From the IMG/VR virus record IMGVR_UViG_3300020200_000018: DNA of 64,000 nucleotides, one strand, 5' to 3'. The DNA comes from an uncultured virus (IMG/VR IMGVR_UViG_3300020200_000018). Lineage: Duplodnaviria > Heunggongvirae > Uroviricota > Caudoviricetes. Shown piece by piece: positions 9,487-51,729 of this stretch (position 1 is the first letter of the stretch; each line of letters begins with the position of its first letter). Both the position numbers and the translations under genes were made by a program. The notes beneath the pieces were generated by a model. It searched no databases, had not been told where the DNA came from, and saw nothing but the letters and a program-made list of their open reading frames with translations.

Positions 9487-10643
9487 TATTTGGCCGCCAA
9501 GATAACTGTCGTGTTGTTTATCCGTCCATTCACAGCCAAGTCTTTTGTCGTTAGCGTTGAGGTGACTGCATGGAGAGAGCGAATGCCAACCCCACCGTCT
9601 AAACTAGCAAAAAAGTTTTTAGGATTTCGTAATTTTCGTTGGCACGATTCTTTAGCAAATCCCTTGATTGTCGTACCTTTAATCGTCATAACTTGGTTAT
9701 CCTGGGTATAATAAGTAGCAAGCATCCTAGTCTTGGTGTTATAGGTCCACACCTCCTCACATTCCAACAATTTTTTAGGATCAATAGACTTCAAACTAAG
9801 GTCTTTATGTTCAGGTAAGTATTTCAGGTGCTTGAGTGCCACTTGGGGATTTCGTTTCCGCGGTTTCCGCTGAGTTTTATTGGCTGCAAACCATTGGGTG
9901 GCACCATCGACAATATTTTGCATAAAGGCCGTATAATTTTCTAATTGCTTTTTAGAAAAGGTGCTATAGCCTTCCCGAAGGACTTTATCATGTTTTACTG
10001 CCTTTAATTCATCAAGGACCGGCTGGTATATACCCGCAATATGCTTTGCATAGACAGGTTTTATATTATGTTCTTGTAACCATGCCAGCATATCAAAGAC
10101 ATCTTTGCATCCACCTAAAATAAACGCATCGACCCTTCCATCTAAATCAGCGACATAAGTTTTGGCTTGTACTTCTACACGGTCCTGGATAGTCGGTGGT
10201 GGAATTGCTGTTGTTTCTTGGGCAGCTTTCTTTTGGGCTGCATTCCTTTCTTTAGCCATGTGGACTAACGCCGTTAACGTATCCAAAAACCATGTATTGG
10301 ATTTTTTATCAGGGGTATATCCTAAAAGGAGCATCCGGCACATTGCGGCTAAAGTTTGGTTGAATTCAGAATCTTTTATAGCGGTCAAATCAACCTTGTT
10401 GTCTTGGCCAATAGATTTAAAATACGCTAACAATGCTTTCCGCCTATCTTTCAAGTCCAAGGTAGCATTATAATAATTAAATGCCGAAAGAATTTTGTTA
10501 CGGTATTCTTCTGCTCCTAAGAGTTGGTCAGCGCTACTCCACGTAGGTTCTGCGCCATGAAACCCCGTATAAGCTACAGCCACCTTTTCGCGGTCCGCTG
10601 CTTTCTTCCTAAGGATGTCGCTATGTGTTTTTGCTTTGTGCAT
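9486..10643 (-). CDS. Conserved T4-like myovirus hypothetical protein
   Basis: C-terminal RKPRKR..LKY..WTYNTK..KGTTI..NGRIN pattern, upstream of rnh. Confidence 0.75.
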   Translation of the reverse strand: MHKAKTHSDILRKKAADREKVAVAYTGFHGAEPTWSSADQLLGAEEYRNKILSAFNYYNATLDLKDRRKALLAYFKSIGQDNKVDLTAIKDSEFNQTLAAMCRMLLLGYTPDKKSNTWFLDTLTALVHMAKERNAAQKKAAQETTAIPPPTIQDRVEVQAKTYVADLDGRVDAFILGGCKDVFDMLAWLQEHNIKPVYAKHIAGIYQPVLDELKAVKHDKVLREGYSTFSKKQLENYTAFMQNIVDGATQWFAANKTQRKPRKRNPQVALKHLKYLPEHKDLSLKSIDPKKLLECEEVWTYNTKTRMLATYYTQDNQVMTIKGTTIKGFAKESCQRKLRNPKNFFASLDGGVGIRSLHAVTSTLTTKDLAVNGRINNTTVILAAK

Positions 10644-11610
10644 AATGGCGGTTAACGATAGACTCCAATAAGTAGGTCCATTGCCGGGCCCGTCCAGTCC
10701 AATTATAAACTGAATCCATATACGCCTTTTGAATTTTTAGGCGCTCTTTAACAGATGAGGAATCAGTAAGGTAGGTATGAATTACGCCACCTAAGACGTT
10801 GACAAAACGGTTCGCGTGGATGTTAATATCTTCATCAAACTGGTACAGCGCAGCAAAATTTGCAGTCGTTTCTGGTAAAGCCGCATAATTCGGGCATACC
10901 ACTTCACATTCTGCGGACATAGCTTCAATAGCCGCAATGCACGATGTTTCAGGCCAGATAGATGGATAAGCAAAAATGTGGGCTTGTTGTAACGCAGCAC
11001 GGATTACATGGTTAGGCTGGAATCCATGGTATGTGATATGTGGGTGGCGCCGGCATAATTCAAAAAGTTCATGGTACTGTTTGTCACGTTCAGGCCAACC
11101 ATATATGCTGAAAGAAGAATACACATCCAAATGGACTGCGGATCCGTATTCTTTTGCTAAGACTTCAAAACAGGGTACAAGTATTTCAAGGCCGCGGTGG
11201 GGTGTTGTGTGGTAAATGAGTCTGATAGGACTTGCTGGCTTTTGGTGTAATGGTATTGGCTCGATGGCATTTTGGAGTACCACACCAGCGCCCAGAGGTA
11301 CTCCTAACCCTAAATTATAGGTATGCATCTGGTAATGTGAAACAAAAACCAGTTGTGCAAACTTAGCACGTTCGGCAGGATTAGCTAAATGGGCTGCTTC
11401 AGGATCGTTCCAAAGATCATGCAACCAAAGGATATTCGGCTTGACTGGATCAAGGTGCCGTACCCGGCTACAAATAATGTTGACCTTCTCTAGTAACGCG
11501 GCATCAACACGTTCTTTCAAACCTTGAAGCATCAGTTCCGTGCCGCCTTGCGCTCCACGGAACGTTCCATCTGTTTCAGGACCCGTAATGTTTAAGATAG
11601 TCTGCCCCAG
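10621..11610 (-). CDS. GT-B (GT4-like) glycosyltransferase
   Basis: GGTELM, WLHD, TPHRGLE, YPSIWPETSCIAAIEAM. The frame is open upstream of ATG 11532 to a CTG at 11610 preceded by GAGGTG. Confidence 0.85.
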   Translation of the reverse strand: MGQTILNITGPETDGTFRGAQGGTELMLQGLKERVDAALLEKVNIICSRVRHLDPVKPNILWLHDLWNDPEAAHLANPAERAKFAQLVFVSHYQMHTYNLGLGVPLGAGVVLQNAIEPIPLHQKPASPIRLIYHTTPHRGLEILVPCFEVLAKEYGSAVHLDVYSSFSIYGWPERDKQYHELFELCRRHPHITYHGFQPNHVIRAALQQAHIFAYPSIWPETSCIAAIEAMSAECEVVCPNYAALPETTANFAALYQFDEDINIHANRFVNVLGGVIHTYLTDSSSVKERLKIQKAYMDSVYNWTGRARQWTYLLESIVNRHYAQSKNT

Positions 11611-12097: not shown

Positions 12098-13099
12098 TTA
12101 TTCGGGAATACTTAAAAACGCAGCTTGGTTATTAGTATCGTAACACCATCCTGTCCATACCTCAAAGAAACTTTTTACAAGTGCATCAGAAAATGGATAA
12201 GCTGCGTAAATACACTCTCTTAAATTATTTAGCGTTGTTTGGTGGCAAACGTGATCATATTCTGCACGGCCCAAGCAAATAAGTGGTTTGCGGTGTAAAA
12301 GAGCTTCGAATCCGGTACCAGAATTCACCGTAACCACACATTTAGCTAAACGCAAACAATCTTGAATGTTCACCGCTTCGATCCATATGGCGCCAGAAAA
12401 TTGTGCGGTAATCTGCTTGAGGGGCTCCATCGATCCCGGATTTACTGGATGCCCCTTCACAACAACGGGAATACCAAGACTATGGCCGGCTTCAAGCGTT
12501 TTCGTAAGGGCATCAGCTACCGATACCGTTGAGTGGAACCGGATAGTCTCATCATGCGGTAATTGGCACGGGTAAAATATAAATGGATCTTTTGGTAACA
12601 AAGAGAGGTTGGTCCCAAGTGGTGGTTGGTCAAATTTACTATCTCCGCGCAAAATCCATTGCTGTAATTGTTCAAAAGCCATTCCTGCACCTTCGGCTGG
12701 TACTACAGCAAAGGGATACGCCGATGAACCAGCTCCCCATCCTTGGGTGTCACAACTAAACAACCACGGAAATTGGGTTTGGGCATAATAATACGCTTCG
12801 GTGTGGGTTAACGGAAATTCGTGGGCTTCTTTATGTGGCACATAAACACGGTCCCACCCTTGCAAGCCATCCGTTTTAGCGGTAGCACACAAACTATCGA
12901 CTTCATTTGCATTAAATTGCCAGAGGGGGCGTTCCCAGACTCGTATGTTATCGCCACGGCGTTGGTGTTCTTGTGCTAGACGGTGGATAAATGCACCCCA
13001 GGGTTTTCTAATTGGCGCAATGGGCCCTATTACACTAGGCACAATGCCATACTTGAACATACAATCAAGCCGTGGGGCAAGGATAAGGATATTTTTCAT
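12098..13099 (-). CDS. Capsule polysaccharide synthesis (KpsS/KpsC-like) glycosyltransferase
   Basis: PCQLPHDETI, VVKGHP, VTVNSGTGFEALL..KP motifs. Confidence 0.75.
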   Translation of the reverse strand: MKNILILAPRLDCMFKYGIVPSVIGPIAPIRKPWGAFIHRLAQEHQRRGDNIRVWERPLWQFNANEVDSLCATAKTDGLQGWDRVYVPHKEAHEFPLTHTEAYYYAQTQFPWLFSCDTQGWGAGSSAYPFAVVPAEGAGMAFEQLQQWILRGDSKFDQPPLGTNLSLLPKDPFIFYPCQLPHDETIRFHSTVSVADALTKTLEAGHSLGIPVVVKGHPVNPGSMEPLKQITAQFSGAIWIEAVNIQDCLRLAKCVVTVNSGTGFEALLHRKPLICLGRAEYDHVCHQTTLNNLRECIYAAYPFSDALVKSFFEVWTGWCYDTNNQAAFLSIPE

Positions 13100-15200: not shown

Positions 15201-15644
15201 TTATGCTGTATTGGCAAGCTGACGTTGCCCAATAATATGGGCCGGCGGACGGCGCCATTTTCCGATAGCATCATTAAGGTAATCGTCTTTTTCGAGAACA
15301 TTAAGCCGGAATTGTAAAGAGACTTCAGCATAATTCGTATCACCCCGTGTAGCATGGACAGAAATAATTTCAAATGTAAACTGGTCTAAACCAAGGTGTC
15401 CTATTTCTTCTTGTAAAAGACTAGACGATGACATATAAGACTGCCAATCAGACTGGGACCTGACACGCCGCCCTTTACCTTTTTTCTTCCGGATTTGCCA
15501 AAAATATTTACGGCCCACATATTGCTTACCTGTAGATTTATTAGTGATAAGGTAAACAAATCCTTCTGCTTTGCCAACATGTTCGGGCAGAAACAGTTGC
15601 CCGCGGAATGTCCAAGGCACAACCGCCTTAGCCACTAACGCCAT
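15201..15644 (-). CDS. GIY-YIG family endonuclease
   Basis: GFVYLITN...YVGRK, DWQSYMSSS. Confidence 0.8.
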   Translation of the reverse strand: MALVAKAVVPWTFRGQLFLPEHVGKAEGFVYLITNKSTGKQYVGRKYFWQIRKKKGKGRRVRSQSDWQSYMSSSSLLQEEIGHLGLDQFTFEIISVHATRGDTNYAEVSLQFRLNVLEKDDYLNDAIGKWRRPPAHIIGQRQLANTA

Positions 15645-29259: not shown

Positions 29260-30204
29260 TTAAAACTTGTATGCGGCCCGCAAGAGTTTATAGAGTAGGT
29301 TACGTGTGGCCGTCCGGTTGACCTCTGTAGGCAACGCAGTGACCTTTGCAAGGGCCTCGACCTCTTCTATGAGGGTTTCTAAGCGTGGCGATACTTCATT
29401 GGTGAAATGAAGATTTCCGGTTTTCAGTTCGCGTAGGTATGCCGTTTCGGCTAACGGATAGGTGAACCCACCATTTCGCAGGATTGCACGGATTTGATAT
29501 GCTATCCGGAACGCGTGGCTAACTGCTTTCCAATCCACACCCTGGTTTAATTCAGCTAACCTGGCCCTGCTACCATATTCCTCAATGAACCGTTCTAATA
29601 CTGGCAGGTATTCACGTACAAACGCTCTAGGATTTAATAATTTGCCACAAACTTGGTAGTATTCAACGTCATCATCTTCGCGGACCCATTGGCAATGTTC
29701 GTTTATCGGAAGGATATCCCGTTTGGAATTGACACGGGAATTCCTATCCACGCTTTTGAAAGCGTTAAGCACTGCTTTAGCAGCCGAGAGCCGGGAACCT
29801 TTGATACCATACTTGGCTGCCTGGGCCCTGGCATACCGGATTGAGGCTGCTATATTCTTAGAATAAAACATGGACCGCTGGGCCACAAGGACTTCCCAGA
29901 TATCCGACGTAGCCAAAATAGCTTGGGCAGGTGCGTGGAGCATGTCTATTGCTACGGTTTGCCCTTCCTCTGCCAGCGCGAAAAAATATTGGAGGGAATA
30001 CATTTCCATGTCCCTATCATTAGCTGTATTCTTAGTATGTTCGGCTAACTTTGTGTTATCATGCGCCGTCGCCTTGACTGTGCAGCAAAGCACGTCCTTT
30101 ACTGACGGTAGGAATATGCCCTTATAATCCCTATCGGAGTTTGGCCCGGCCAACCCATAGAGGTGCGAGCCAAAGACCATTTCTACAATTTTATTCATTA
30201 TCAA
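29260..30204 (-). CDS. Nucleotidyltransferase, T4 NrdC.11-like (Pol-beta superfamily)
   Basis: FGSHLYGL..PNSDRDYKGIF, AAKYGIKGSRL, VDWKAVSHA. Confidence 0.85.
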   Translation of the reverse strand: MIMNKIVEMVFGSHLYGLAGPNSDRDYKGIFLPSVKDVLCCTVKATAHDNTKLAEHTKNTANDRDMEMYSLQYFFALAEEGQTVAIDMLHAPAQAILATSDIWEVLVAQRSMFYSKNIAASIRYARAQAAKYGIKGSRLSAAKAVLNAFKSVDRNSRVNSKRDILPINEHCQWVREDDDVEYYQVCGKLLNPRAFVREYLPVLERFIEEYGSRARLAELNQGVDWKAVSHAFRIAYQIRAILRNGGFTYPLAETAYLRELKTGNLHFTNEVSPRLETLIEEVEALAKVTALPTEVNRTATRNLLYKLLRAAYKF

Positions 30205-30210
30205 ACCTTC

Positions 30211-30633
30211 TTAATAGTTTCCTTCTGCAACCTGAAAGCAGATTAAGCCAATGCGGCGCCACATTGCCACCACGGAAATACGGTCATCCAAAACAAACGT
30301 CACCCTATATTCTGGCTCCACGGCAAACCGGTAAAGAAATTCTTTAACAATATCATCCTTTCTCCTATCACGTTCTGGCCGCATTATCAAATCCGTGTAT
30401 GGTACACCATGCCAAAACAAGAATTGCTCTGTTTGGCGTCGGAATTTATTGCTACGCCCAGTTATACAGATAATTGCGTGGTCGGTTGCAAAGCGGCGGA
30501 CAACCTCACGGACCGGAACAGATACATCGTCCTCTTGGCAATAGGAATGATCGTAAGGGTCTCGGCTGGGAGCACGAATAGAAAGGGTGCCATCCAAGTC
30601 CACAATAATGGCAGGTTTTTTTATAATCCCCAT
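30211..30633 (-). CDS. HAD phosphatase, PseT/Pnkp 3'-phosphatase-like domain only
   Basis: VDLDGTL, ITGR, MRP..DRRKD..VK, LDDR..V..MWRRIG..CFQVAEGNY. Confidence 0.85.
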   Translation of the reverse strand: MGIIKKPAIIVDLDGTLSIRAPSRDPYDHSYCQEDDVSVPVREVVRRFATDHAIICITGRSNKFRRQTEQFLFWHGVPYTDLIMRPERDRRKDDIVKEFLYRFAVEPEYRVTFVLDDRISVVAMWRRIGLICFQVAEGNY

Positions 30634-31088
30634 TCACTTGTTGAAAATTTATGTAGTTGAGCAACCATTTTTGGTTCGACTTGGAATGCAAATTTTACGG
30701 CTGGTTGATCAATGGGTATAAGGATCATATTGCGGTTGTCCCGTGTCGTATAAAATTTGGTGGTAAATGTTTTTGGATCAATTTCATAACACTTGCCGCT
30801 CCGGCTGCGGTCCCTTGAATTAAGGGCTATCATAAACAACCGTCCAACATTGCGGCATTTCCATAATTGGTTTTGTGCGAATGAAAAGGCTCGTTGGGTG
30901 TGAAATTCCTCCATAGTCTTGACCTCAACTGATACACCATTAGCCAGCATATCTTTTTCTGAATCGAATTGGTTATCAGAATATACCACTTCGGCACCTT
31001 CAGCAATCTTGAGGTACCTCCCAACGATCATTTCTCCGAGGCGGCCTTGTGCAACCTTTTTCTCGTTTGATGAATAATAGGTTTCCAT
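30621..31088 (-). CDS. Putative PD-(D/E)xK nuclease-like protein
   Basis: GE..V...KD......VEVKT pattern. Confidence 0.5.
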   Translation of the reverse strand: METYYSSNEKKVAQGRLGEMIVGRYLKIAEGAEVVYSDNQFDSEKDMLANGVSVEVKTMEEFHTQRAFSFAQNQLWKCRNVGRLFMIALNSRDRSRSGKCYEIDPKTFTTKFYTTRDNRNMILIPIDQPAVKFAFQVEPKMVAQLHKFSTSEWGL

Positions 31089-32072
31089 TTAAAAGAAGGA
31101 CTCCAACGTTTGGTTCGGTTCTGGATGCCACCCAATGACTTTAAGTATAGCATTGAGTGGTTCTATAAAGGCTTTGTCAAATTGCATGGAATAGTCAATA
31201 TAGGGCCGTAAGCCAAATTCTTCTGGCAAAAATGCAATAGCTGAAATGACATGGGACATGATGGGATTGGGCTCTTTAAGGTAACAGAATTTGATCTTTT
31301 CTCCATTACGGATTTCTTCGTATTTCTTTTCCAGCTTTAATTCTTTCCGTAAACGGTTATAAATGACTGCGCCTTTTGTGTGTATCGGCACACCTTTTTC
31401 TAAATTAAGATATTTTGTAACTTGGTTCACTGCCCGTGGAAATGCGATGTCCTCAAATGGTAGGGACTGAAATTCTTGACGGTACTTTTTAATGAATTCT
31501 TGTAAATCCCTTTCAGTGCCTGACATAATGACACCAATTGCGTCTTTAATAGCTTTACGGCAAGAAGATGGAGTAGAAGATTTTACAGCTTCGATACCCA
31601 TGATTTTGATTTTTGGGGTATCGTACCGGATACCTTCATTGTCAAATACATTGAGCATGTACCGTTTCTTAGCTGTCCAAATACCACGGTTCGCAATAGC
31701 TTCGCGTTTCATCACCAATGTGCCTTGTTGGGCACCAAGCATCTGAGAGAGCCGGTTAAAGATTTCATCAAAAGCTGGAATAATTTTCTTCTCTGCGATT
31801 TTATCAAGTTTTTCTACTAGCTGTTCTTGCGTCAATGCTGGATTTACTGCTAAAAGTTTTTCCGCAGCACCAGCAAATTTAAGGTAGAGGGAATCCGTAT
31901 CAGACGCAATAACGTAATCTTTGCCGTTTGTATCAAGGAGGGCATTCATTACTTTATTGATTTCTTGTTCAGCAAAACGGATAACCAATTGGCCACCAAA
32001 AGTAATTGCTGTTGCCTGGCGGATATCAAAGTGCCGAAAATGCTCGTTACCTAACCGAGCGCTCCGTAACAC
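31089..32072 (-). CDS. 43: DNA polymerase gp43, C-terminal part (palm motif C and thumb)
   Basis: GNEHFRHFD..ATAITFGGQ, ASDTDSLY, KKRY, GIEAVKSSTP, C-terminal clamp-binding TLESFF. Confidence 0.92.
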   Translation of the reverse strand: MLRSARLGNEHFRHFDIRQATAITFGGQLVIRFAEQEINKVMNALLDTNGKDYVIASDTDSLYLKFAGAAEKLLAVNPALTQEQLVEKLDKIAEKKIIPAFDEIFNRLSQMLGAQQGTLVMKREAIANRGIWTAKKRYMLNVFDNEGIRYDTPKIKIMGIEAVKSSTPSSCRKAIKDAIGVIMSGTERDLQEFIKKYRQEFQSLPFEDIAFPRAVNQVTKYLNLEKGVPIHTKGAVIYNRLRKELKLEKKYEEIRNGEKIKFCYLKEPNPIMSHVISAIAFLPEEFGLRPYIDYSMQFDKAFIEPLNAILKVIGWHPEPNQTLESFF

Positions 32073-33685
32073 GAATTAAGCTGGAGTTTCTTAGCCAATT
32101 GCAGGTTTTTGTATTTGGCTATCTCCTGCTCTTTCATATTACGGAAGCGCTCAAGTTCCTTCAAAGCTGTCAAACTTACGGTTGTTAAATCTTTTTGCCT
32201 ATCTCTTGACTTCTGCTTATCTATTTCTTTTTCAATAGCAATAAGGTCTTTTTGCGCGGCTTGCATAGCGTTCTTGTATTCAACCCGTTTCCCATAAAAC
32301 TTTTCCATCATTTCTGGTAAAAACCCGCGCACATCTGTCCTGAAGACCCAACCATTCGCACCTAGTGCGGTGTGGGATTTTGCAAAGGCAGGCACTTTGC
32401 CAGCCAATAACTTATCAATCGTAACATCTTGGTGGCATTGGTTCAGAATTGTTTCCGGTGAAATATTGAACATTCTGATAAGGTTTGGATACATGGAATT
32501 TAAATCGAACGACAATACCCAATCATGCGATCCGATCTGTGGATCTTTTACATACGCGCCTGCATACGCTTCGTTTTTATGCCCACCACTATTGACGGGA
32601 ACAGCAATCTGCCGCTCCCACAAATAATTATGGATAAGGACATCCCACAAACGGACTTGCGTCATTACATCGGTATAGTTGACTTTGGCATCATACGCCA
32701 TTGCTAACGCCAGGTCGATCAATTTCATTTTTTCATCTAGTTTTTGGACCAGTAGCACATCCTGGATATTGTATTCTACAAACCGTTGGTGGTCACGCTC
32801 ATACATGGCTTGAAGTGTTGAGTAATCAGTGTAAGACAGTTTGCTTGTACCCAATTCAACATTGGCAATGTGGCCAAGCCTGTACGATTCTTGTTGGTTG
32901 TAAGTAAACTTGCGGTATAGGGCCAAGTAGTCAAGGATACTGACACCGCCAATATCAATGCACGTTCCCTCTTTACCGAAGTTATCATAACCTATCCGTT
33001 CTGAAACCAATCCCCAGGGTGATAACCTATTGGCATATTTCACGCCCAACTCAGATTTAATCCGGCTATAGAGGTAGGGAAGATCAAATCTGTCAACACT
33101 CCATCCACTTACAATATCGGGATGGACGTTAACCCAATAATCGAGTAGGCGTGTAAGGAGTTCACGTTCATTCTGGCATTGGTGGAATTCAACATTAAGT
33201 CCTTCTACTTCCTTATGTTTCGTTGCATCGTATGGACCCAGTGCGAGGACAAAAATACCATTAGCATCCTGGCAGGTGGCAGCTGTGATTTGTTTGTTGG
33301 CCAATTTCATGTTTGGGAAGCCTTCGTCCATATCCATTTCAAGGTCTATAAAGACAATCCGTAAAAGGTTGCGGTCAAATTCAACAATGCCGTTATAGGT
33401 TTCATTGAGGAATGCATAAACAAAGCGCGGTAATCCATAAATCCGCATACCTTCAACGCCGTCGTATTTTTTGATAAAATCTTTGGCGGAATAAATGTTT
33501 GCTTGCCGCATCGCGGTCAAAAGCTGGCCACTTGGTGTGCGCCAGGGCCCTGGCTCTTCGCCGTTAGGAAAGAATAGGAGGGGGCGGTAGGGAACTTTCT
33601 CAGCAAACCGTTTGCCGTTGCGGATGCCGCGGATGAATACTTCATTGCCTTTGGTAAAGGCATTAGTATAGAAATTCAAAGCCAT
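32051..33685 (-). CDS. 43: DNA polymerase gp43, N-terminal part (exonuclease, motif A, fingers, motif B)
   Basis: DLEMD, FDLPY, YNIQD, SFDLNSMYP, ends KKLQLNSCYGALG-TAG. Confidence 0.92.
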   Translation of the reverse strand: MALNFYTNAFTKGNEVFIRGIRNGKRFAEKVPYRPLLFFPNGEEPGPWRTPSGQLLTAMRQANIYSAKDFIKKYDGVEGMRIYGLPRFVYAFLNETYNGIVEFDRNLLRIVFIDLEMDMDEGFPNMKLANKQITAATCQDANGIFVLALGPYDATKHKEVEGLNVEFHQCQNERELLTRLLDYWVNVHPDIVSGWSVDRFDLPYLYSRIKSELGVKYANRLSPWGLVSERIGYDNFGKEGTCIDIGGVSILDYLALYRKFTYNQQESYRLGHIANVELGTSKLSYTDYSTLQAMYERDHQRFVEYNIQDVLLVQKLDEKMKLIDLALAMAYDAKVNYTDVMTQVRLWDVLIHNYLWERQIAVPVNSGGHKNEAYAGAYVKDPQIGSHDWVLSFDLNSMYPNLIRMFNISPETILNQCHQDVTIDKLLAGKVPAFAKSHTALGANGWVFRTDVRGFLPEMMEKFYGKRVEYKNAMQAAQKDLIAIEKEIDKQKSRDRQKDLTTVSLTALKELERFRNMKEQEIAKYKNLQLAKKLQLNSCYGALG

Positions 33686-33690
33686 ACTCT

Positions 33691-33719
33691 ATGATAGCAA
33701 AACTGGAAGAATCAGTCAA
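33691..33719 (-). promoter_or_regulatory. Sigma70-type promoter directly before gp43
   Basis: TTGACT-17-TATCAT, ending 5 nt before the ATG. Confidence 0.6.
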
Positions 33720-34114
33720 TCAACTAATTTAGGCTTAAACCCTTTGGGTATCTGATGATTTGTATGTAATGCCTGCTCAGGGATAACAATGCCAGATCCA
33801 AATGTCGTATTATAGCTATTGAACATTTCCTTTGCAGGAGAAGAGAAAAACAGTACATGGTTCAAAGCAAAGGTGACTTCTTTACCACCTGGCGTATCTT
33901 CACTAAATGGTAAGAAGTCTGATAAGTGGACAATGCCTTTTCCTGTTTGTTGGTCCATACCCATAAGAATAGCGGCAGGTTTCTTAATTGTGATTGTTGA
34001 AGAATTAGATCCAAGGGATACTTTTCCAATCACCATCGCACCAGTAATAAGTTGAAGCAGCACAACCTCATTGGAAAAAATCGTGCTTGTTGGTTCTTTA
34101 ACTACGGCTGTCAT
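33716..34114 (-). CDS. Sm-like fold hypothetical protein
   Basis: VVLLQLITG..VIG...YN..FGSGIV pattern. Sits between regA and gp43 as in T4-like myoviruses. Confidence 0.6.
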   Translation of the reverse strand: MTAVVKEPTSTIFSNEVVLLQLITGAMVIGKVSLGSNSSTITIKKPAAILMGMDQQTGKGIVHLSDFLPFSEDTPGGKEVTFALNHVLFFSSPAKEMFNSYNTTFGSGIVIPEQALHTNHQIPKGFKPKLVD

Positions 34115-34547
34115 TAACTAACTCCTTACTCCTATATGGTTTTGTTTTCTTCTTACCAATGTGATACTTTGGTTCGAGCATCCACTCTGTCTTTTCGTGG
34201 AATGGGATGATTTTAATTTCGCTCAAACTTGCTGCATCCCAGTTTTGGTAATTTGTATCAACTGGCCGTACCAATTTCCACTCAGCCAGTAATTTTATGA
34301 CAGTATTACGTTGGCGCCTGTCATTATCATTAAAGGTACTTTCAGCTCCGTCAAGGGCAAAGAGTTCTTTATAATGGGTAATAAAATACCGTCCTTGCTT
34401 ATGTAAGATATGGCAAAGCTGGGTGAGGACATCATTATCAGCATTTGGATGGCCGATCCGTGTGAGGGTTTCGCGGATAATAAGAAAGGCATCTGGTTTT
34501 GGTAGAAGCACTTCGGCCATAGTGTTTATGATTGTTTTACTCTCCAT
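34098..34547 (-). CDS. regA: Translational repressor RegA
   Basis: FLIIRETLTRIG, CHILHKQGRYFITHYKELFALDG. Confidence 0.95.
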   Translation of the reverse strand: MESKTIINTMAEVLLPKPDAFLIIRETLTRIGHPNADNDVLTQLCHILHKQGRYFITHYKELFALDGAESTFNDNDRRQRNTVIKLLAEWKLVRPVDTNYQNWDAASLSEIKIIPFHEKTEWMLEPKYHIGKKKTKPYRSKELVNDSRS

Positions 34548-48773: not shown

Positions 48774-49727
48774 TTAATCCTCTGTATATCGTAGATTAGG
48801 ATCGTTGGCTAGGCGGGTATCACAATAGCTAACACAAGAGAGCCGGCGTCCTTTACCTGCAATAGGAGATACCCCATGCTGCTTTCTACTATCGCCAACA
48901 AATACGTCACCATCTCCAATGCTAATGGCAACCCTAAATTGTGGCAATACAAACAATGCGCCAGTAAATGTGCCAATATGGAATACCGATAAACACGTTA
49001 GGCTGGTATTCAAATCCCCTGCGTCAATATGGTAGCCCATCATAGATGTATCGTCATCCTCATATTTGTTAGCTGAAAGGGTTGTAAAAATCGTGCCACC
49101 AAGATGGTAAGTTTTTGGAATATTATCATCTGCAAAAGCACGTTGCGCCGCATATTCAAATGGTGCAATCTCTTGATAAGTTGCATCCGCAATCACGTTC
49201 ATACGATTAAGGATTTCTAATTTATCTGGATTTTTCTTAGACCACGCATCTAATTCTATTTCTCCCGTAAACCTACCACGCTTATATCCAATTAAGACAG
49301 AATGGATTGGACGTCCACGAGCGACAGTATCCCATGTTCCGTCTTTTTTCCGGCGGATCATGGCATTCTTATTTCCGCCCTTAAACTTATAATCCACACC
49401 TTCAACCCAATTATACTGCCTAAGGAGTTCCTTTGGATCCCAAGGTCCTGCTTGGGCAATACGAAGATCGGAGGTAATGTTAATGCTGTCAAGGCATGTT
49501 TTAATGTCTGTATAATCCTGATCAGTAAACGCATGGCGTTTAATCGCAGCTAAGAGGGGACGGTCACCAAAAATATCACGGGGCCCCAAAACTTTAAAAT
49601 CACAATTAATTACTTCGGCATCAAGGACAGTATCATAATCCTCTGGAGAAGGAATTTGCCCCTGGTACCGCATGGCAGATTGAAACCCAATGTCTTCAAC
49701 AACTACAAATTCTTTCATAACCCCCAT
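48774..49727 (-). CDS. TET/JBP-family 2OG-Fe(II) dioxygenase
   Basis: FTTLSAN, HIDAGD (HxD), GALFVLPQF, QHGVSPI, RLSCVSY. Directly downstream of a C5 methyltransferase. Confidence 0.85.
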   Translation of the reverse strand: MGVMKEFVVVEDIGFQSAMRYQGQIPSPEDYDTVLDAEVINCDFKVLGPRDIFGDRPLLAAIKRHAFTDQDYTDIKTCLDSINITSDLRIAQAGPWDPKELLRQYNWVEGVDYKFKGGNKNAMIRRKKDGTWDTVARGRPIHSVLIGYKRGRFTGEIELDAWSKKNPDKLEILNRMNVIADATYQEIAPFEYAAQRAFADDNIPKTYHLGGTIFTTLSANKYEDDDTSMMGYHIDAGDLNTSLTCLSVFHIGTFTGALFVLPQFRVAISIGDGDVFVGDSRKQHGVSPIAGKGRRLSCVSYCDTRLANDPNLRYTED

Positions 49728-51037
49728 TCCTTTGCTGGTTGTAATATCGCTTTGTATAGATGGTTTGCAATCGCGTACATTTGTAATGGCGCCACCATCA
49801 ATCCGATCCGTTCTTCTGTATCTTCTTCTGTTCCGGGTGCAAATTTGTAATCATCTGGTAGCGACATGATCCGCATAAGTTCTGGGCGGGTAAAACATCG
49901 GTCCTCATCTGGTAAGAAATAACTGTGGCAACGTCCTGTAATCGTCGGCGCTGGCGCATTCCAAGCACAACGAAAATAATTGAAATAAGACATGCGGTTT
50001 TTGAATTTAGCTAATTCAGGAATGGTCGAATGTGTTCGGGCCACCGTGATAAGGAATTTGCAAAACTGCATCTGTTTCTTTGGATTATAGGGAATGGCCT
50101 TTAAAACTTCACGGACAACGGGATTGCCATCTACAACATCTGCAAGCTCCTTTAACCGAAGCGCAGCAAATCCCTCCACATGCTTCATATTAGCCAATCC
50201 ATCACGGAGTGTTGTTTGTTTAGCAAAAGGAGCAGGATAGACACGCTGGTGAAAATGTAATTCTTCTAATCCTAATACTTTGGCAATATCTTCCCTAATG
50301 CAAATGATAAATGTTCGTTGCCGGTTTTGTGGCACTCCATAGTAAGACGCATTGAGGATTTTATATGCACAGCGGTAGCCAATGGCGTTCAATGCACCCA
50401 TAAAGGCAGACAAATAATCATGGGCCCGGCCAGCTGATAACGCTTTAACATTTTCAATCACAATACAACGTGGCTGCAATCCTTTAGCAATACGGATCAT
50501 TTCTTCGGTCAAACGTTCAATTTGGACTTGGACGTATCCGTGGTAAAGTTTTTCTTGGTCCCAAGACTTCTTACGTTTGCCACTCATAGAGAAATGGGTA
50601 CAGGGAGGTGAACCGTCAAAAATGTCCAATTCCCCTGGCTGCAATCCAGCAGCTTTTAAAAAATCACTGTCTTGTAATGTTTTAATATCGCCTGTAAAGA
50701 TATGGGTAGTTGGATGGTTTAGCCGGTAAGATTCGTAGGCGTGTTCAACAAATTCATTTGAGACAAGGACTTTGCCACCCGCCAACTTATAACCTGTTGA
50801 AGAACCTCCTGCGCCAGCGAAAGTTGAAATGACAGTAAACTTAGCTGCTTCACTAGCGCGGTTCATATCAGCTACAGTATAAGGTATGTAGCCAGCGGTT
50901 TCTTTTGGTGCCACAGGTTCGGCTTCCCGAACGCCTGGCAGCCAAGTTTCAGTACAAAGTACGTGGCCAGCAATTTCTTTTGGCGCCATAGGTTCGGCTT
51001 CTCGAACACCTGGCAACCAAGTATCAAGGGTCTGCAT
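49715..51037 (-). CDS. DNA (cytosine-5) methyltransferase
   Basis: Motif I FAGAGG, IV GSPPC, VI ENV, VIII PQNRQR, IX R..SLPDDY. Confidence 0.93.
   Translation of the reverse strand: MQTLDTWLPGVREAEPMAPKEIAGHVLCTETWLPGVREAEPVAPKETAGYIPYTVADMNRASEAAKFTVISTFAGAGGSSTGYKLAGGKVLVSNEFVEHAYESYRLNHPTTHIFTGDIKTLQDSDFLKAAGLQPGELDIFDGSPPCTHFSMSGKRKKSWDQEKLYHGYVQVQIERLTEEMIRIAKGLQPRCIVIENVKALSAGRAHDYLSAFMGALNAIGYRCAYKILNASYYGVPQNRQRTFIICIREDIAKVLGLEELHFHQRVYPAPFAKQTTLRDGLANMKHVEGFAALRLKELADVVDGNPVVREVLKAIPYNPKKQMQFCKFLITVARTHSTIPELAKFKNRMSYFNYFRCAWNAPAPTITGRCHSYFLPDEDRCFTRPELMRIMSLPDDYKFAPGTEEDTEERIGLMVAPLQMYAIANHLYKAILQPAKEWGL
50891..51022. repeat. Duplicated N-terminal peptide in the methyltransferase
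   Basis: TWLPGVREAEPxAPKExAG twice, 75-nt period. Confidence 0.85.
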
Positions 51038-51054
51038 AATTATAGTATAGCGGT

Positions 51055-51729
51055 TTATGAGGATATTGTCAAGGACAAAGATTCTGTTTCAGGCGAGCCA
51101 ATTGGAATCCTTACTTTTGTATCGTCTAAAATAACCGGTTGTTCATTAAGAACCACTGGCTCGGTTGGCAATTTTCCTTTATGTGTTTTCTTATAAGCTT
51201 TCATACGCCTGAGTAATTGCTTCTGCTTATTGCGGCCGCGGATACGCTCAGACATAGAAGCCCTAGTTGTAAACGTAATTCCATTCAAATGGTCGTACTC
51301 GTGGAGGAATACACGAGCAGTCATACCATCAAATTTGATTGTATCTGTCGCTCCTGTGGCTAAAGTATAACGTACCCGGATAGCGGACTTCCGCGTCACA
51401 CGTAAAAATAAGCCTGGAAATGATACGCATCCTTCCTCATAGCGCACATTCTCTCCAAATTCATCTAAGATATTGGGATTAAATGCTACCACAATACTTT
51501 CAGGATCAGCGAAATTACCAAACGCAAAGACCCGGGCCATTACCCCGACTTGTGGAGCAGCTAAACCAACGGCTTTATATTCGATGAGGAGTGCTTTAAG
51601 GGCATTGGCCAATAACAATGCACCATTCGGATCGCCTTCGATATTAAAATCCTCACATACTTGTCGGAGCCTTGGATCGGTTTCTGGTAAAAGTTGTAAA
51701 CGGCTAGTCTGTCCATCAAACGTCACCAT
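51055..51729 (-). CDS. def: Peptide deformylase
   Basis: GLAAPQVG, EEGCVS, HEYDHLNG. Confidence 0.95.
   Translation of the reverse strand: MVTFDGQTSRLQLLPETDPRLRQVCEDFNIEGDPNGALLLANALKALLIEYKAVGLAAPQVGVMARVFAFGNFADPESIVVAFNPNILDEFGENVRYEEGCVSFPGLFLRVTRKSAIRVRYTLATGATDTIKFDGMTARVFLHEYDHLNGITFTTRASMSERIRGRNKQKQLLRRMKAYKKTHKGKLPTEPVVLNEQPVILDDTKVRIPIGSPETESLSLTISS

Follow-up and report, generated by a model that had tools for sequence, protein, structure and literature searches.

A stop-led gap in the gp43 DNA polymerase gene of an uncultured T4-like phage as a candidate short translational bypass

In the 64,000-nt stretch analysed here (the window; IMG/VR record IMGVR_UViG_3300020200_000018, from an uncultured virus of the Caudoviricetes), the gene for the DNA polymerase gp43 is broken by a UAG codon directly after a conserved motif-B glycine, and the conserved reading resumes in another frame after a gap of 5 nt. 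From comparison of this site with its relatives we consider it highly probable that the gap is a programmed short translational bypass, or 'stop-hop', which would be a miniature counterpart of the one known from T4 gene 60/mobA. That the ribosome leaves one GGT, skips the UAG and lands on an identical GGT was already the leading interpretation of the first-pass annotation, and it gains support from 28 other contexts with the same break, from the start codons missing in 24 of 27 contexts, and from a covarying hairpin upstream of the take-off codon. The features of the site are collected in Table 1.

Table 1. Features at the gp43 break, in window coordinates
Feature	Position	Strand	Remarks
gp43 part 1 (ORF1)	32051..33685	-	544 codons + UAG; ends ...NSCYGALG
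Take-off Gly codon GGT	32054..32056	-	Equivalent to RB69 G571
5-nt coding gap TAGGT	32049..32053	-	UAG 32053..32051 overlaps landing GGT 32051..32049
Resume codon AAC	32048..32046	-	
gp43 part 2 from AAC	31089..32048	-	319 codons + stop; palm second half and thumb
ORF2	32072..31089	-	327 aa counted from GTG at 32072
GTG, sole possible start for a separate second subunit	32070..32072	-	Inside 3' strand of conserved hairpin
Large RNA hairpin, ~105 nt	32053..32157	-	3' strand runs into take-off codon
5' strand of 15 covarying pairs	32136..32151	-	Alignment A3 columns 11-26
3' strand of covarying pairs	32057..32072	-	Alignment A3 columns 90-105; codons for (S)CYGAL; includes GTG 32072..32070

The minus strand at the break reads AAT TCG TGT TAC GGA GCG CTC GGT TAG GT AAC GAG CAT TTT CGG CAC TTT GAT. 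ORF1 comprises the N-terminal and exonuclease regions, the first half of the palm and the fingers with motif B, and matches the Pfam families DNA_pol_B_exo1 (1.1e-18) and DNA_pol_B (1.8e-17). It aligns to RB69 gp43 residues 4-571, its last residue being the equivalent of G571, and residues 6-309 of ORF2, which begins MLRSARLGNEHFRHFD..., align to RB69 gp43 569-883, so that the two pieces of the polymerase abut exactly. Deletion of the 5 nt in silico restores the family consensus YGA[LIV]G-N..FR, the UAG is flanked by identical GGT codons, and the joined product is predicted to have 544 + 319 = 863 aa. Decoding of TAG as an amino acid was considered and rejected: the continuation in frame 0 is non-conserved sequence. 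All other T4-type genes scanned in the window are unbroken ORFs, and that scan found no second polymerase. The window contains no tRNA genes, and hence encodes no special tRNA-Gly. By itself, the 8-mer GGTTAGGT shows no enrichment in the window (2 matches vs 1.7 expected). A 155-aa ORF that follows gp43 gives a weak hint of PD-(D/E)XK homology (E 0.16); it was found in this phage only and is therefore not part of any shared cassette.

The break is genuine DNA. The first-pass annotation had left room for an assembly error, which is refuted by five contigs carrying the 5 nt: two are JGI-type assemblies, namely IMG/VR contig L001 (1 mismatch in 5062 nt against the window) and metagenome contig L081 (identical over 5981 nt), and the other three are Logan contigs, built independently from runs X1, X8 and X9 (word depth 31.9, 13.7 and 17.3), which span 31750-32350 without indels, all of this being evidence from assembled contigs that minority variants could escape. 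The X8 contig has a separate SNP at 32276, and a contig from run X14 covers just 31750-31821. At least 98% of the sampled words are present in 13 lake-water runs, which may share one campaign and may include the source sample; none of the runs listed with the window's words is an RNA run. The nearest genome record, G001, is a 25.8-kb fragment that lacks gp43.

The first-pass annotation had pointed to related genomes as the place to look for the same break, and relatives are not uniformly continuous: a pattern scan of IMG/VR returned 47 contigs from 47 datasets, which represent 29 distinct contexts, the window included. A stop follows the same motif-B glycine directly in 29/29 contexts, as it must by construction, the scan pattern having demanded a stop at this position; it is TAG in 24, TGA in 3 and TAA in 2. 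The gap measures 5 nt in 15 contexts, 9 in 6, 6 in 3, 4 in 3 and 10 in 2. Immediately before the resume codon the gap ends in GGN in 26/29 contexts, and the landing triplet matches the take-off triplet exactly in 12, is compatible with it by U/C wobble in 4, keeps GG but changes the third base in 10, and reads AGC in 3. Since all three frames are represented among the gaps, read-through cannot account for every case, and nor can a single-base frameshift; in one context (L255) a TAA lies in the resume frame directly before the landing GGT, which could thus be reached by a hop only. In the 4-nt class the gap could as well be crossed by a +1 shift, with one Ser added.

What follows the gap is conserved as coding sequence. 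All 30 insert-bearing sequences show conservation over the 28 residues that follow the resume codon, at 67% identity to the insert-free consensus vs 78% for insert-free genes themselves, a comparison, like the others made here, between unmatched samples, since insert-bearing loci were gathered by the stop-requiring pattern and insert-free loci by similarity to the window; the insert-free pattern has at least 120 matches. The peptide before take-off, KYKNLQLAKK.QLNS.YGA.G, is also conserved, but equally so in insert-free polymerases. Insert-bearing genes occupy at least five separated parts of the tree, and sister lineages carry gaps of unequal length: 6 nt in L273 and 5 in L272/L292, 6 in L264 and 5 in L277, 9 in L256 and 5 in L243. 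In split relatives the frame open upstream of the stop runs for 45-82 codons and includes motif B. Protein records tell a similar tale of truncation: P0241 (46 aa) ends in ...NSCYGALG, and P0242 (528 aa), from a more distant unsplit relative, ends in ...YGALG, its partner P0003 being called from 28 codons further on; the DNA behind P0242/P0003 is absent from IMG/VR and GenBank phages. GenBank phages hold no near-identical relative of the window, all tblastn matches lying below 60% identity, and two insert-bearing lineages likewise lack a close relative in culture, nt identity reaching ~64-67% across no more than 51% of the query.

Upstream of the take-off codon, every insert-bearing gene, that of the window included, can form a large covarying hairpin that is absent from insert-free relatives. 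Over the 113-nt stretch 32158..32046 the window folds at -48.9 kcal/mol (z -8.27), and 0/200 shuffles are as stable; a fold of 32010-32110 gave z 0.33 because it cuts off the 5' strand of the hairpin. The 15 pairs are formed in 96.9% of cells, vs 23-45% when slid. Cells changed on both sides number 58 (0/500 shuffles reach 58), 7 of the pairs show compensatory changes, and the covariation score is 0.536 vs 0.202 in shuffles (0/500 reach it). On average 14.5 of the 15 pairs are formed in 24 insert-bearing stretches; among insert-free genes the mean is 7.0 for the 23 that are split and 5.2 for the 145 that are unsplit. The mean folding energy is -44.3 kcal/mol in insert-bearing genes vs -18.2 and -16.5 for insert-free genes, with ranges that do not overlap. 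An Rfam search of 31000-34200 returned no match at E up to 1. The hairpin matches the 5' stem-loop of gene 60 in position, not the gene 60 take-off stem-loop, for which gaps of 4-10 nt are too short; it could also serve other ends, such as mRNA stability or control of the cassette genes. The first-pass annotation had drawn attention to a different structure, a small GCUCG/CGAGC hairpin around the gap. That hairpin is present in the window (32060..32042, -7.9 kcal/mol) but is specific to its lineage, folds from -21 to +36 around the site having revealed no conserved counterpart in the 28 contexts; the conserved structure is the ~105-nt one upstream.

An enzyme of two subunits is the best of the other explanations, and one that we hold to be improbable. 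Here a 544-aa protein would end at the UAG, a second would start at the GTG at 32072 by translational coupling or re-initiation, and the two would associate non-covalently at the border of fingers and palm. The GTG is in the right frame, 22 nt upstream of the stop, and the break adjoins the fingers/palm boundary of RB69 gp43, which we take to lie at residues 572/573. Split gp43 is moreover common in these phages, with breaks at the fingers tip in 44/238 gp43 rows, alongside thousands of stand-alone B-type proteins. Against this, the GTG has no Shine-Dalgarno match, its duplex with the anti-Shine-Dalgarno sequence (-0.6 kcal/mol) being weaker than at 73% of random positions, although the polymerase's own ATG likewise has none; a TAA stands two codons upstream in its frame, and the codon itself is base-paired within the conserved hairpin. 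In 24/27 contexts the resume frame offers no ATG, GTG or TTG at all ahead of the resume codon, yet the residues from that codon on are conserved. Split relatives would need a third free peptide of 45-82 residues containing motif B, and both the Gly landing codon and the hairpin would be left unexplained. The two-subunit option that the first-pass annotation had attached to this GTG fares worse than the bypass; the GTG itself has no counterpart in relatives with gaps of 5, 6, 9 and 10 nt.

A -1 frameshift within the 8 codons between the second-frame TAA and the UAG would bridge the window's gap, 5 nt being equal to a -1 change of frame, and would yield a product with two additional residues, e.g. 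YGALGLGNEHF. Such events are known to be stimulated by a stop codon occupying the A site and by strong structure close at hand (PMC5009743). We nevertheless think it very unlikely, and this further option of the first-pass annotation has lost ground: the 8-codon overlap contains no X XXY YYZ slippery heptamer, tRNA-Gly would by base-pairing rules be expected to re-pair poorly at CGG, and the structure is found on the 5' side of the site where the 3' side would be called for. Gaps of 4, 6, 9 and 10 nt, as seen in relatives, would need other frame changes or none, and a conserved motif would be interrupted by an insertion in the product.

The gene might instead simply be broken, in a defective or helper-dependent lineage or through a recent mutation carried in a bloom. 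Copies of the window's lineage are nearly clonal, with 1 SNP in 5 kb, and the runs that hold them may stem from one campaign. Yet three runs have the insert genotype as their assembled majority, at 14-32x word depth, and 13 runs contain it, every other gene scanned in the window is unbroken, and deeply diverged lineages keep the design, with both halves conserved and the hairpin covarying; we regard a broken gene as very doubtful. Least credible of all is removal of the gap at the RNA level, e.g. by some unknown cut-and-reseal reaction: two genes of RNA-repair type, for a PNKP-phosphatase (30211-30633) and RlaP (29260-30204), lie just downstream of gp43, and an enzyme might be offered the gap by the hairpin, but the stop and the Gly landing codon would then have no role, and no case in which 4-10 nt are cut out of a bacterial mRNA is known to us.

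We return to the translational bypass, for which the arrangement of stop, landing codon and hairpin suggests a course of events. The ribosome would translate gp43 as far as Gly544 (GGU) and there meet UAG, which is decoded slowly. The last ~15 nt of the ~105-nt hairpin would at this point lie unwound within the ribosome, with the partner strand outside the mRNA exit, and re-zipping of the hairpin may pull the mRNA forward and help the peptidyl-tRNA-Gly to release its codon. Kept in the P site, the tRNA would re-pair with the identical GGU 5 nt downstream and decoding would restart at AAC, the outcome being a single polymerase of 863 residues in which ...YGALG-NEHFR... forms the canonical junction. 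What we infer from these sequence patterns is that a hop takes place and how efficient it is, that the hairpin drives it, and that the gap confers the immunity discussed below. Some observations count against a hop. The window, unlike most of its relatives, has a GTG upstream in the second frame, and it is without the endonuclease gene; synthetic stop-hops are reported to be of low efficiency, yet a replicative polymerase is essential; and the landing codon departs from the take-off codon in its third base in 10 of the 29 contexts and is AGC in 3.

Most insert-bearing genes have a homing endonuclease gene just upstream of them. A GIY-YIG/SegE-like ORF lies between 43A and 43B in 19/25 insert-bearing contexts vs 0/161 insert-free ones, as detected with an endonuclease profile that was itself built from insert-bearing loci. 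Corrected for phylogeny, the association comprises few events: 6 independent pairs, of which 3 point in the same direction and 0 in the opposite one (median p 0.25). The gene of the window is not split at the fingers tip, in distinction to 28 of the 29 insert-bearing contexts, which are of the split type, and the window holds no member of the cassette's GIY-YIG family (hmmsearch, E up to 10). The fingers-tip splits sit 31-58 residues upstream of motif B, in agreement with the first-pass annotation's statement that natural gp43A/B splits fall in the fingers before motif B; the window's break follows motif B. In most relatives the cassette of hairpin leader, stop, 4-10 nt gap and Gly landing stands behind a GIY-YIG gene that splits gp43 at the fingers tip. 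If T4 mobA/gene 60 is a guide, the conserved motif-B DNA contains the target of that nuclease, and the gap probably makes it unusable. The window copy is best read as a relic of such an endonuclease cassette, in which the nuclease gene would have been lost and the polymerase halves seemingly re-fused, leaving hairpin and gap behind.

Taken together, these patterns may describe an undescribed family of mini bypass cassettes in the polymerase genes of aquatic T4-like phages, in which a ~100-nt hairpin would drive an efficient hop, the cassette would spread with its GIY-YIG nuclease, and the window would be a 'hit and run' survivor; we lean towards this fuller account, if by a small measure. The reason for the retention of hairpin and gap in the window would on that account be a lasting protection from the nuclease that co-infecting relatives bring. 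If the account is true, these are the first natural stop-hops, and in the published literature we found no description of such a stop-led gap in gp43. Experiments on efficient programmed bypassing have been carried out almost solely on T4 gene 60 (10.1101/2022.08.31.505936), and counterparts acting over shorter distances have 'long been presumed' (2016 review, PMC5009743). The 29 natural variants of a compact design, in three frames and with the hairpin attached, amount to a ready mutational series, suited to asking how refolding of mRNA at the exit side, the stop codon and codon matching jointly shift a ribosome by a few bases. There is a consequence for annotation as well, in that gene callers give such polymerases as fragments of 46, 300, 327, 528 or 544 residues, and the link between homing endonucleases and recoding would widen from a topoisomerase to a replicative polymerase.

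Several known systems share parts of this design. Among them are Aeromonas phages with split gp43A/gp43B, in one of which the halves are separated by a GIY-YIG gene (Petrov, Karam and co-workers, cited in PMC2677866). The same enzyme is split there at the fingers, with a GIY-YIG-type gene in between. Of our contexts, 28/29 belong to this split type, whereas the window gene is not split at the fingers tip; the Aeromonas halves are described as two separately translated subunits, and the account of them in that source makes no mention of a stop-led gap after motif B.

Natural gaps of 10 nt and 7 nt have been reported in the large terminase genes of Streptomyces phage phiHau3 and two prophages, where, once UUA had been replaced by UAA, mass spectrometry identified a junction peptide in E. 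coli (PMC10732093). Those genes resemble ours in having a frame-breaking insert, a first codon that is slow to decode, an essential phage gene as host, flanks that match uninterrupted relatives, and RNA structure predicted nearby. They differ in their trigger, for the part of the stop is taken there by UUA, a rare sense codon with ties to the physiology of the host; three genes of the type are known, and the available text of PMC10732093 reports no link to an endonuclease.

Synthetic stop-hops are reviewed together with the gene 60 signals in PMC5009743, as are +5 and +6 hops in E. coli (Weiss et al. 1987, cited therein). The 6-nt class among our contexts (e.g. GGA TAA GGA) is exactly the case in which '9 nt specify one amino acid', and the window would correspond to the +5 form. 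Unlike these artificial and inefficient constructs, the sites here are natural and conserved and come with a dedicated hairpin; according to that review, no natural in-frame stop-hop was known in 2016. The mitochondria of Magnusiomyces capitatus contain 'byps' (PMC5009743; 10.1101/2022.08.31.505936), which are likewise numerous short non-coding inserts in essential genes, skipped by ribosomes and marked by an undecodable A-site codon; they are longer than ours, at 27-55 nt, and mitochondrial.

The T4 gene 60 cassette and its homologues also belong here. In T4 a homing-endonuclease gene splits an essential replication gene (gene 39/mobA/gene 60), the bypass spans 50 nt (10.1101/2022.08.31.505936), and the insert shields the genome from its own endonuclease (10.1101/2022.08.31.505936; PMC5009743). 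The gap here is 4-10 nt vs 50 in T4, it holds neither a conserved take-off stem-loop nor an internal Shine-Dalgarno motif, and the 5' hairpin, which exceeds its T4 counterpart considerably in size, extends right up to the take-off codon. Here the endonuclease belongs to a GIY-YIG/SegE-like kind, MobA being a different protein, and the host gene is gp43, not a topoisomerase (the word 'polymerase' occurs nowhere in the available text of 10.1101/2022.08.31.505936), the window copy lacking both the endonuclease and the split. In its logic, nonetheless, the arrangement is alike: a bypass placed a few dozen codons into the downstream gene, with take-off at codon 46 in T4 and 45-82 codons open here; a Gly take-off codon followed by a stop, usually UAG, with a matched or near-matched Gly landing; and an mRNA stem-loop 5' of take-off, one that in T4 has been proposed to propel the first forward steps.

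On the minus strand of the window, the DNA polymerase gene gp43 reads ...AAT TCG TGT TAC GGA GCG CTC GGT TAG GT AAC GAG CAT TTT CGG... and is divided by a stop-led gap, TAGGT, into two pieces, ORF1 and ORF2. ORF1 matches RB69 gp43 residues 4-571, and because the alignments of the two pieces end at 571 and begin at 569, their frames abut exactly. The first-pass annotation had claimed that removing these 5 nt restores an uninterrupted YGALGNEHFR; both alignments bear this out, as does the gp43 family consensus, which the joined sequence reproduces. Gene order around gp43 is that of the T4 replication module (gp45?-gp44-gp62-regA-gp43, then PNKP phosphatase, RlaP, UvsX and gp41). Every other gene scanned in the window has an unbroken ORF, and no second polymerase was found among the genes scanned across it.

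Features of the window discussed in the text
Feature	Position	Strand	Remarks
ORF1, gp43 before the gap	33685..32051	-	544 aa; exonuclease and polymerase domains of family B; motif B, ...NSCYGALG, at its C-terminal end
ORF2, gp43 after the gap	32072..31089	-	327 aa; aligned from its own residue 6 to RB69 569-883
Gap TAGGT	32053..32049	-	junction YGALG-NEHFR when skipped
Hairpin, paired region	32157 to 32053	-	from the fold of 32158..32046
Long fingers linker	32136-32290	-	ORF1 residues about 465-520; extra part resembles N-terminal head of 43B genes
155-aa ORF	30621-31088	-	directly after gp43, ATG adjoining the polymerase stop; weak PD-(D/E)XK hint only (DUF4420, E 0.16); absent from all other loci
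Stand-alone PNKP phosphatase domain (PF25109, 1.1e-40) and RlaP-type nucleotidyltransferase (PF10127)	29260-30633	-	between gp43 and uvsX; RNA-repair-like pair
Free-standing SegE-type GIY-YIG endonuclease gene	15201-15644	-	PF19835 1.5e-38; only 147 aa; adjoins class II ribonucleotide reductase gene
Peptide deformylase gene, phage-encoded	51055-51729	-	PF01327 3.2e-34
Genes that together look like a DNA hypermodification set	48774-51037, 10621-11532, 12098-13099		C5 cytosine methyltransferase (PF00145, 1.4e-51) adjoining TET/JBP dioxygenase (PF12851); glycosyltransferase and capsule-synthesis-type genes elsewhere in the window, apart from this pair

The 5-nt break is real DNA. An assembly error, raised earlier as a possibility, is contradicted by the same 5 nt in an IMG/VR contig (L001, 1 mismatch in 5062), in a 95-kb metagenome contig identical to the window (L081), and in Logan contigs of sequencing runs X1, X8 and X9, which span the site without any indel at word depths of 31.9, 13.7 and 17.3; the L001 SNP also occurs in X8. 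At least 98% of sampled words are present in thirteen lake-water runs, which may belong to one campaign and include the source sample, and whose contigs may hide minority variants.

Similarity searching gave 239 loci, 235 of which have an unbroken frame across the YGA.G-N motif; two belong to the window's own phage, and in two a truncated locus leaves the motif out. The closest full-length proteins (P0123 and P0124, 48-49% identity to ORF1) are both continuous. Splits at the fingers tip, into genes 43A and 43B, occur in 44 of 238 rows and precede motif B by 31-58 residues or more, in agreement with the earlier statement that natural gp43A/B splits break in the fingers before that motif. Between 43A and 43B, insert-free split polymerases (L013, L014, L017, L018, L021, L023, L024, L026, L030, L040 and L045) have a conserved ORF of ~95-103 aa (...AHGVCATGK...; for example L013:2549-2857) with no Pfam match, in place of which L019 has a phosphomannomutase-like HAD gene (PF03332, 6.9e-26). 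A first hint that the break may recur comes from P0242 (528 aa) and P0241 (46 aa), which end in ...NAAYGALG and ...NSCYGALG; the gene call of P0003, the partner of P0242 that shares its tally of 4 contigs (the longest 44,437 nt), starts no earlier than 28 codons past the junction.

The first-pass annotation had suggested seeking the same break in related genomes, and it is there. An IMG/VR pattern scan for motif-B codons followed by a stop matched 47 contigs, each from a separate dataset, and the pattern-scan contigs with L081 give 62 loci in 29 distinct contexts. The gap is 5 nt in 15 contexts, 9 nt in 6, 6 nt in 3, 4 nt in 3 and 10 nt in 2, and its stop is TAG (24), TGA (3) or TAA (2). The triplet before the resume codon is identical to the take-off Gly codon in 12 contexts, U/C-compatible in 4, GG with another third base in 10, and AGC in the 3 with 4-nt gaps. 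The resume residue is Asn, except for Ser in 2 contexts, and is followed by a conserved ..[FYW]FR; identity to the insert-free consensus over the first 28 residues past the resume codon is 0.67, versus 0.78 for insert-free genes. In L255, a resume-frame TAA lies directly 5' of the landing GGT. In a FastTree phylogeny built from 216 C-terminal parts, a quick tree whose insert-bearing and insert-free samples were gathered by different routes, inserts fall in at least 5 separated places (minimum 10 changes), and gap length differs between sister lineages. Members of the 4-nt class (TAGC; L242, L244, L248, L254 and L258) land on AGC, without a Gly landing codon, and start codons are available upstream in their second frame; they may use a +1 shift adding one Ser in place of a hop.

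RNAalifold detected a long-range helix in 28 contexts. In an alignment of 24 distinct rows and 111 columns it has 15 pairs, and its 3' strand is made of the codons directly before the take-off codon. Paired cells amount to 96.9%, versus 23-45% with partners slid. Compensatory changes occur in 7 pairs, both sides change in 58 cells (reached by 0 of 500 shuffles), the covariation score is 0.536 versus 0.202 in shuffles, and the 5' strand tracks the Leu/Ile/Val identity of the codon preceding take-off. Insert-bearing genes (n=24) form a mean of 14.5 of the 15 pairs, with a mean MFE over the last 100 nt of -44.3 kcal/mol (range -56.6 to -36.3); the corresponding values are 7.0 and -18.2 kcal/mol for split insert-free genes (n=23), and 5.2 and -16.5 kcal/mol (range -28.3 to -4.1) for unsplit ones (n=145). 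The window's 113 nt fold at -48.9 kcal/mol (z -8.27), with a paired region whose extent places the take-off GGU inside the hairpin.

From these sequence comparisons, we consider programmed bypass in the window's gp43 very probable. The hop proposed in the first-pass annotation, from GGT over UAG to a second GGT, is supported by the family of stop-led gaps, by the absence of start codons in most contexts and by the covarying hairpin, which would drive it. Gaps in all three frames, missing start codons and a conserved landing Gly fit a hop but neither read-through nor a single frameshift nor separate initiation. The small remaining probability is shared among several rivals. A second subunit could start at the GTG at 32072; however, this GTG lies, like the unusual Cys codon in NSCYG, in the hairpin 3' strand, opposite CGUAAUAU, and both are thereby explained without a start codon, and the resume frame upstream of the resume codon is without ATG, GTG or TTG in 24 of 27 contexts, yet the residues past it are conserved. 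A -1 shift would have to accommodate relatives whose gaps fall in all three frames. A dead gene and removal of the gap at the RNA level take up the rest. The hop is directly testable with a small reporter.

In 28 of 29 contexts, all fingers-tip split phages with the gap early in gene 43B, the open frame upstream of take-off is only 45-82 codons. Most of these phages have an ORF of 226-249 aa between 43A and 43B; 14 of 16 intervening ORFs tested (168-249 aa) match GIY-YIG or SegE_GIY-YIG (E up to 0.01), five exceeding the Pfam cut-off. Among the 25 insert-bearing contexts that extend 1.3 kb or more upstream, a profile of this ORF matches 19; it matches 0 of 161 insert-free ones. This association is suggestive but not proven, because only ~6 contrasts are phylogenetically independent (3 agree in direction, 0 are opposite, p ~0.25). 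In four insert-bearing loci (L273, L292, L262 and L279), the 2.8 kb preceding the endonuclease gene yielded nothing 43A-like, and the polymerase's first half has to be encoded further away or elsewhere. A profile search found no cassette endonuclease in the window, whose SegE-type gene does not match that profile. The window's gp43 is unsplit, and its linker from the GFLPEMM-like motif to motif B has 76 residues, versus a median of 47 (range 40-61) among 61 insert-free genes without a split; a linker this long would be expected if an A tail and a B head had been fused again, and the gene may be a former split.

Natural bypass is described for T4 gene 60 and homologues in topoisomerase genes (10.1101/2022.08.31.505936) and for yeast mitochondrial byps (PMC5009743; 10.1101/2022.08.31.505936), and, over gaps of 10 and 7 nt, for Streptomyces phage terminases (PMC10732093). 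Synthetic stop-hops date from 1987, with no natural example known to a 2016 review (PMC5009743). In the full-text literature, with most subscription journals outside coverage, we found no paper describing a gp43 gap downstream of motif B; as far as that literature reaches, the gp43 hop would be a variant of a known bypass type, first described here. The cassette architecture mirrors T4 gene 39 / mobA / gene 60, in which the bypass insert protects against MobA (10.1101/2022.08.31.505936). The hairpin likewise matches the gene 60 5' stem-loop in position and logic, as that element is described: it folds as soon as its sequence has emerged from the ribosome, and has been proposed to power the initial forward movement (10.1101/2022.08.31.505936), and a 2024 preprint, by its title, argues for pairing of the exiting mRNA as the driver (10.1101/2024.12.09.627546).
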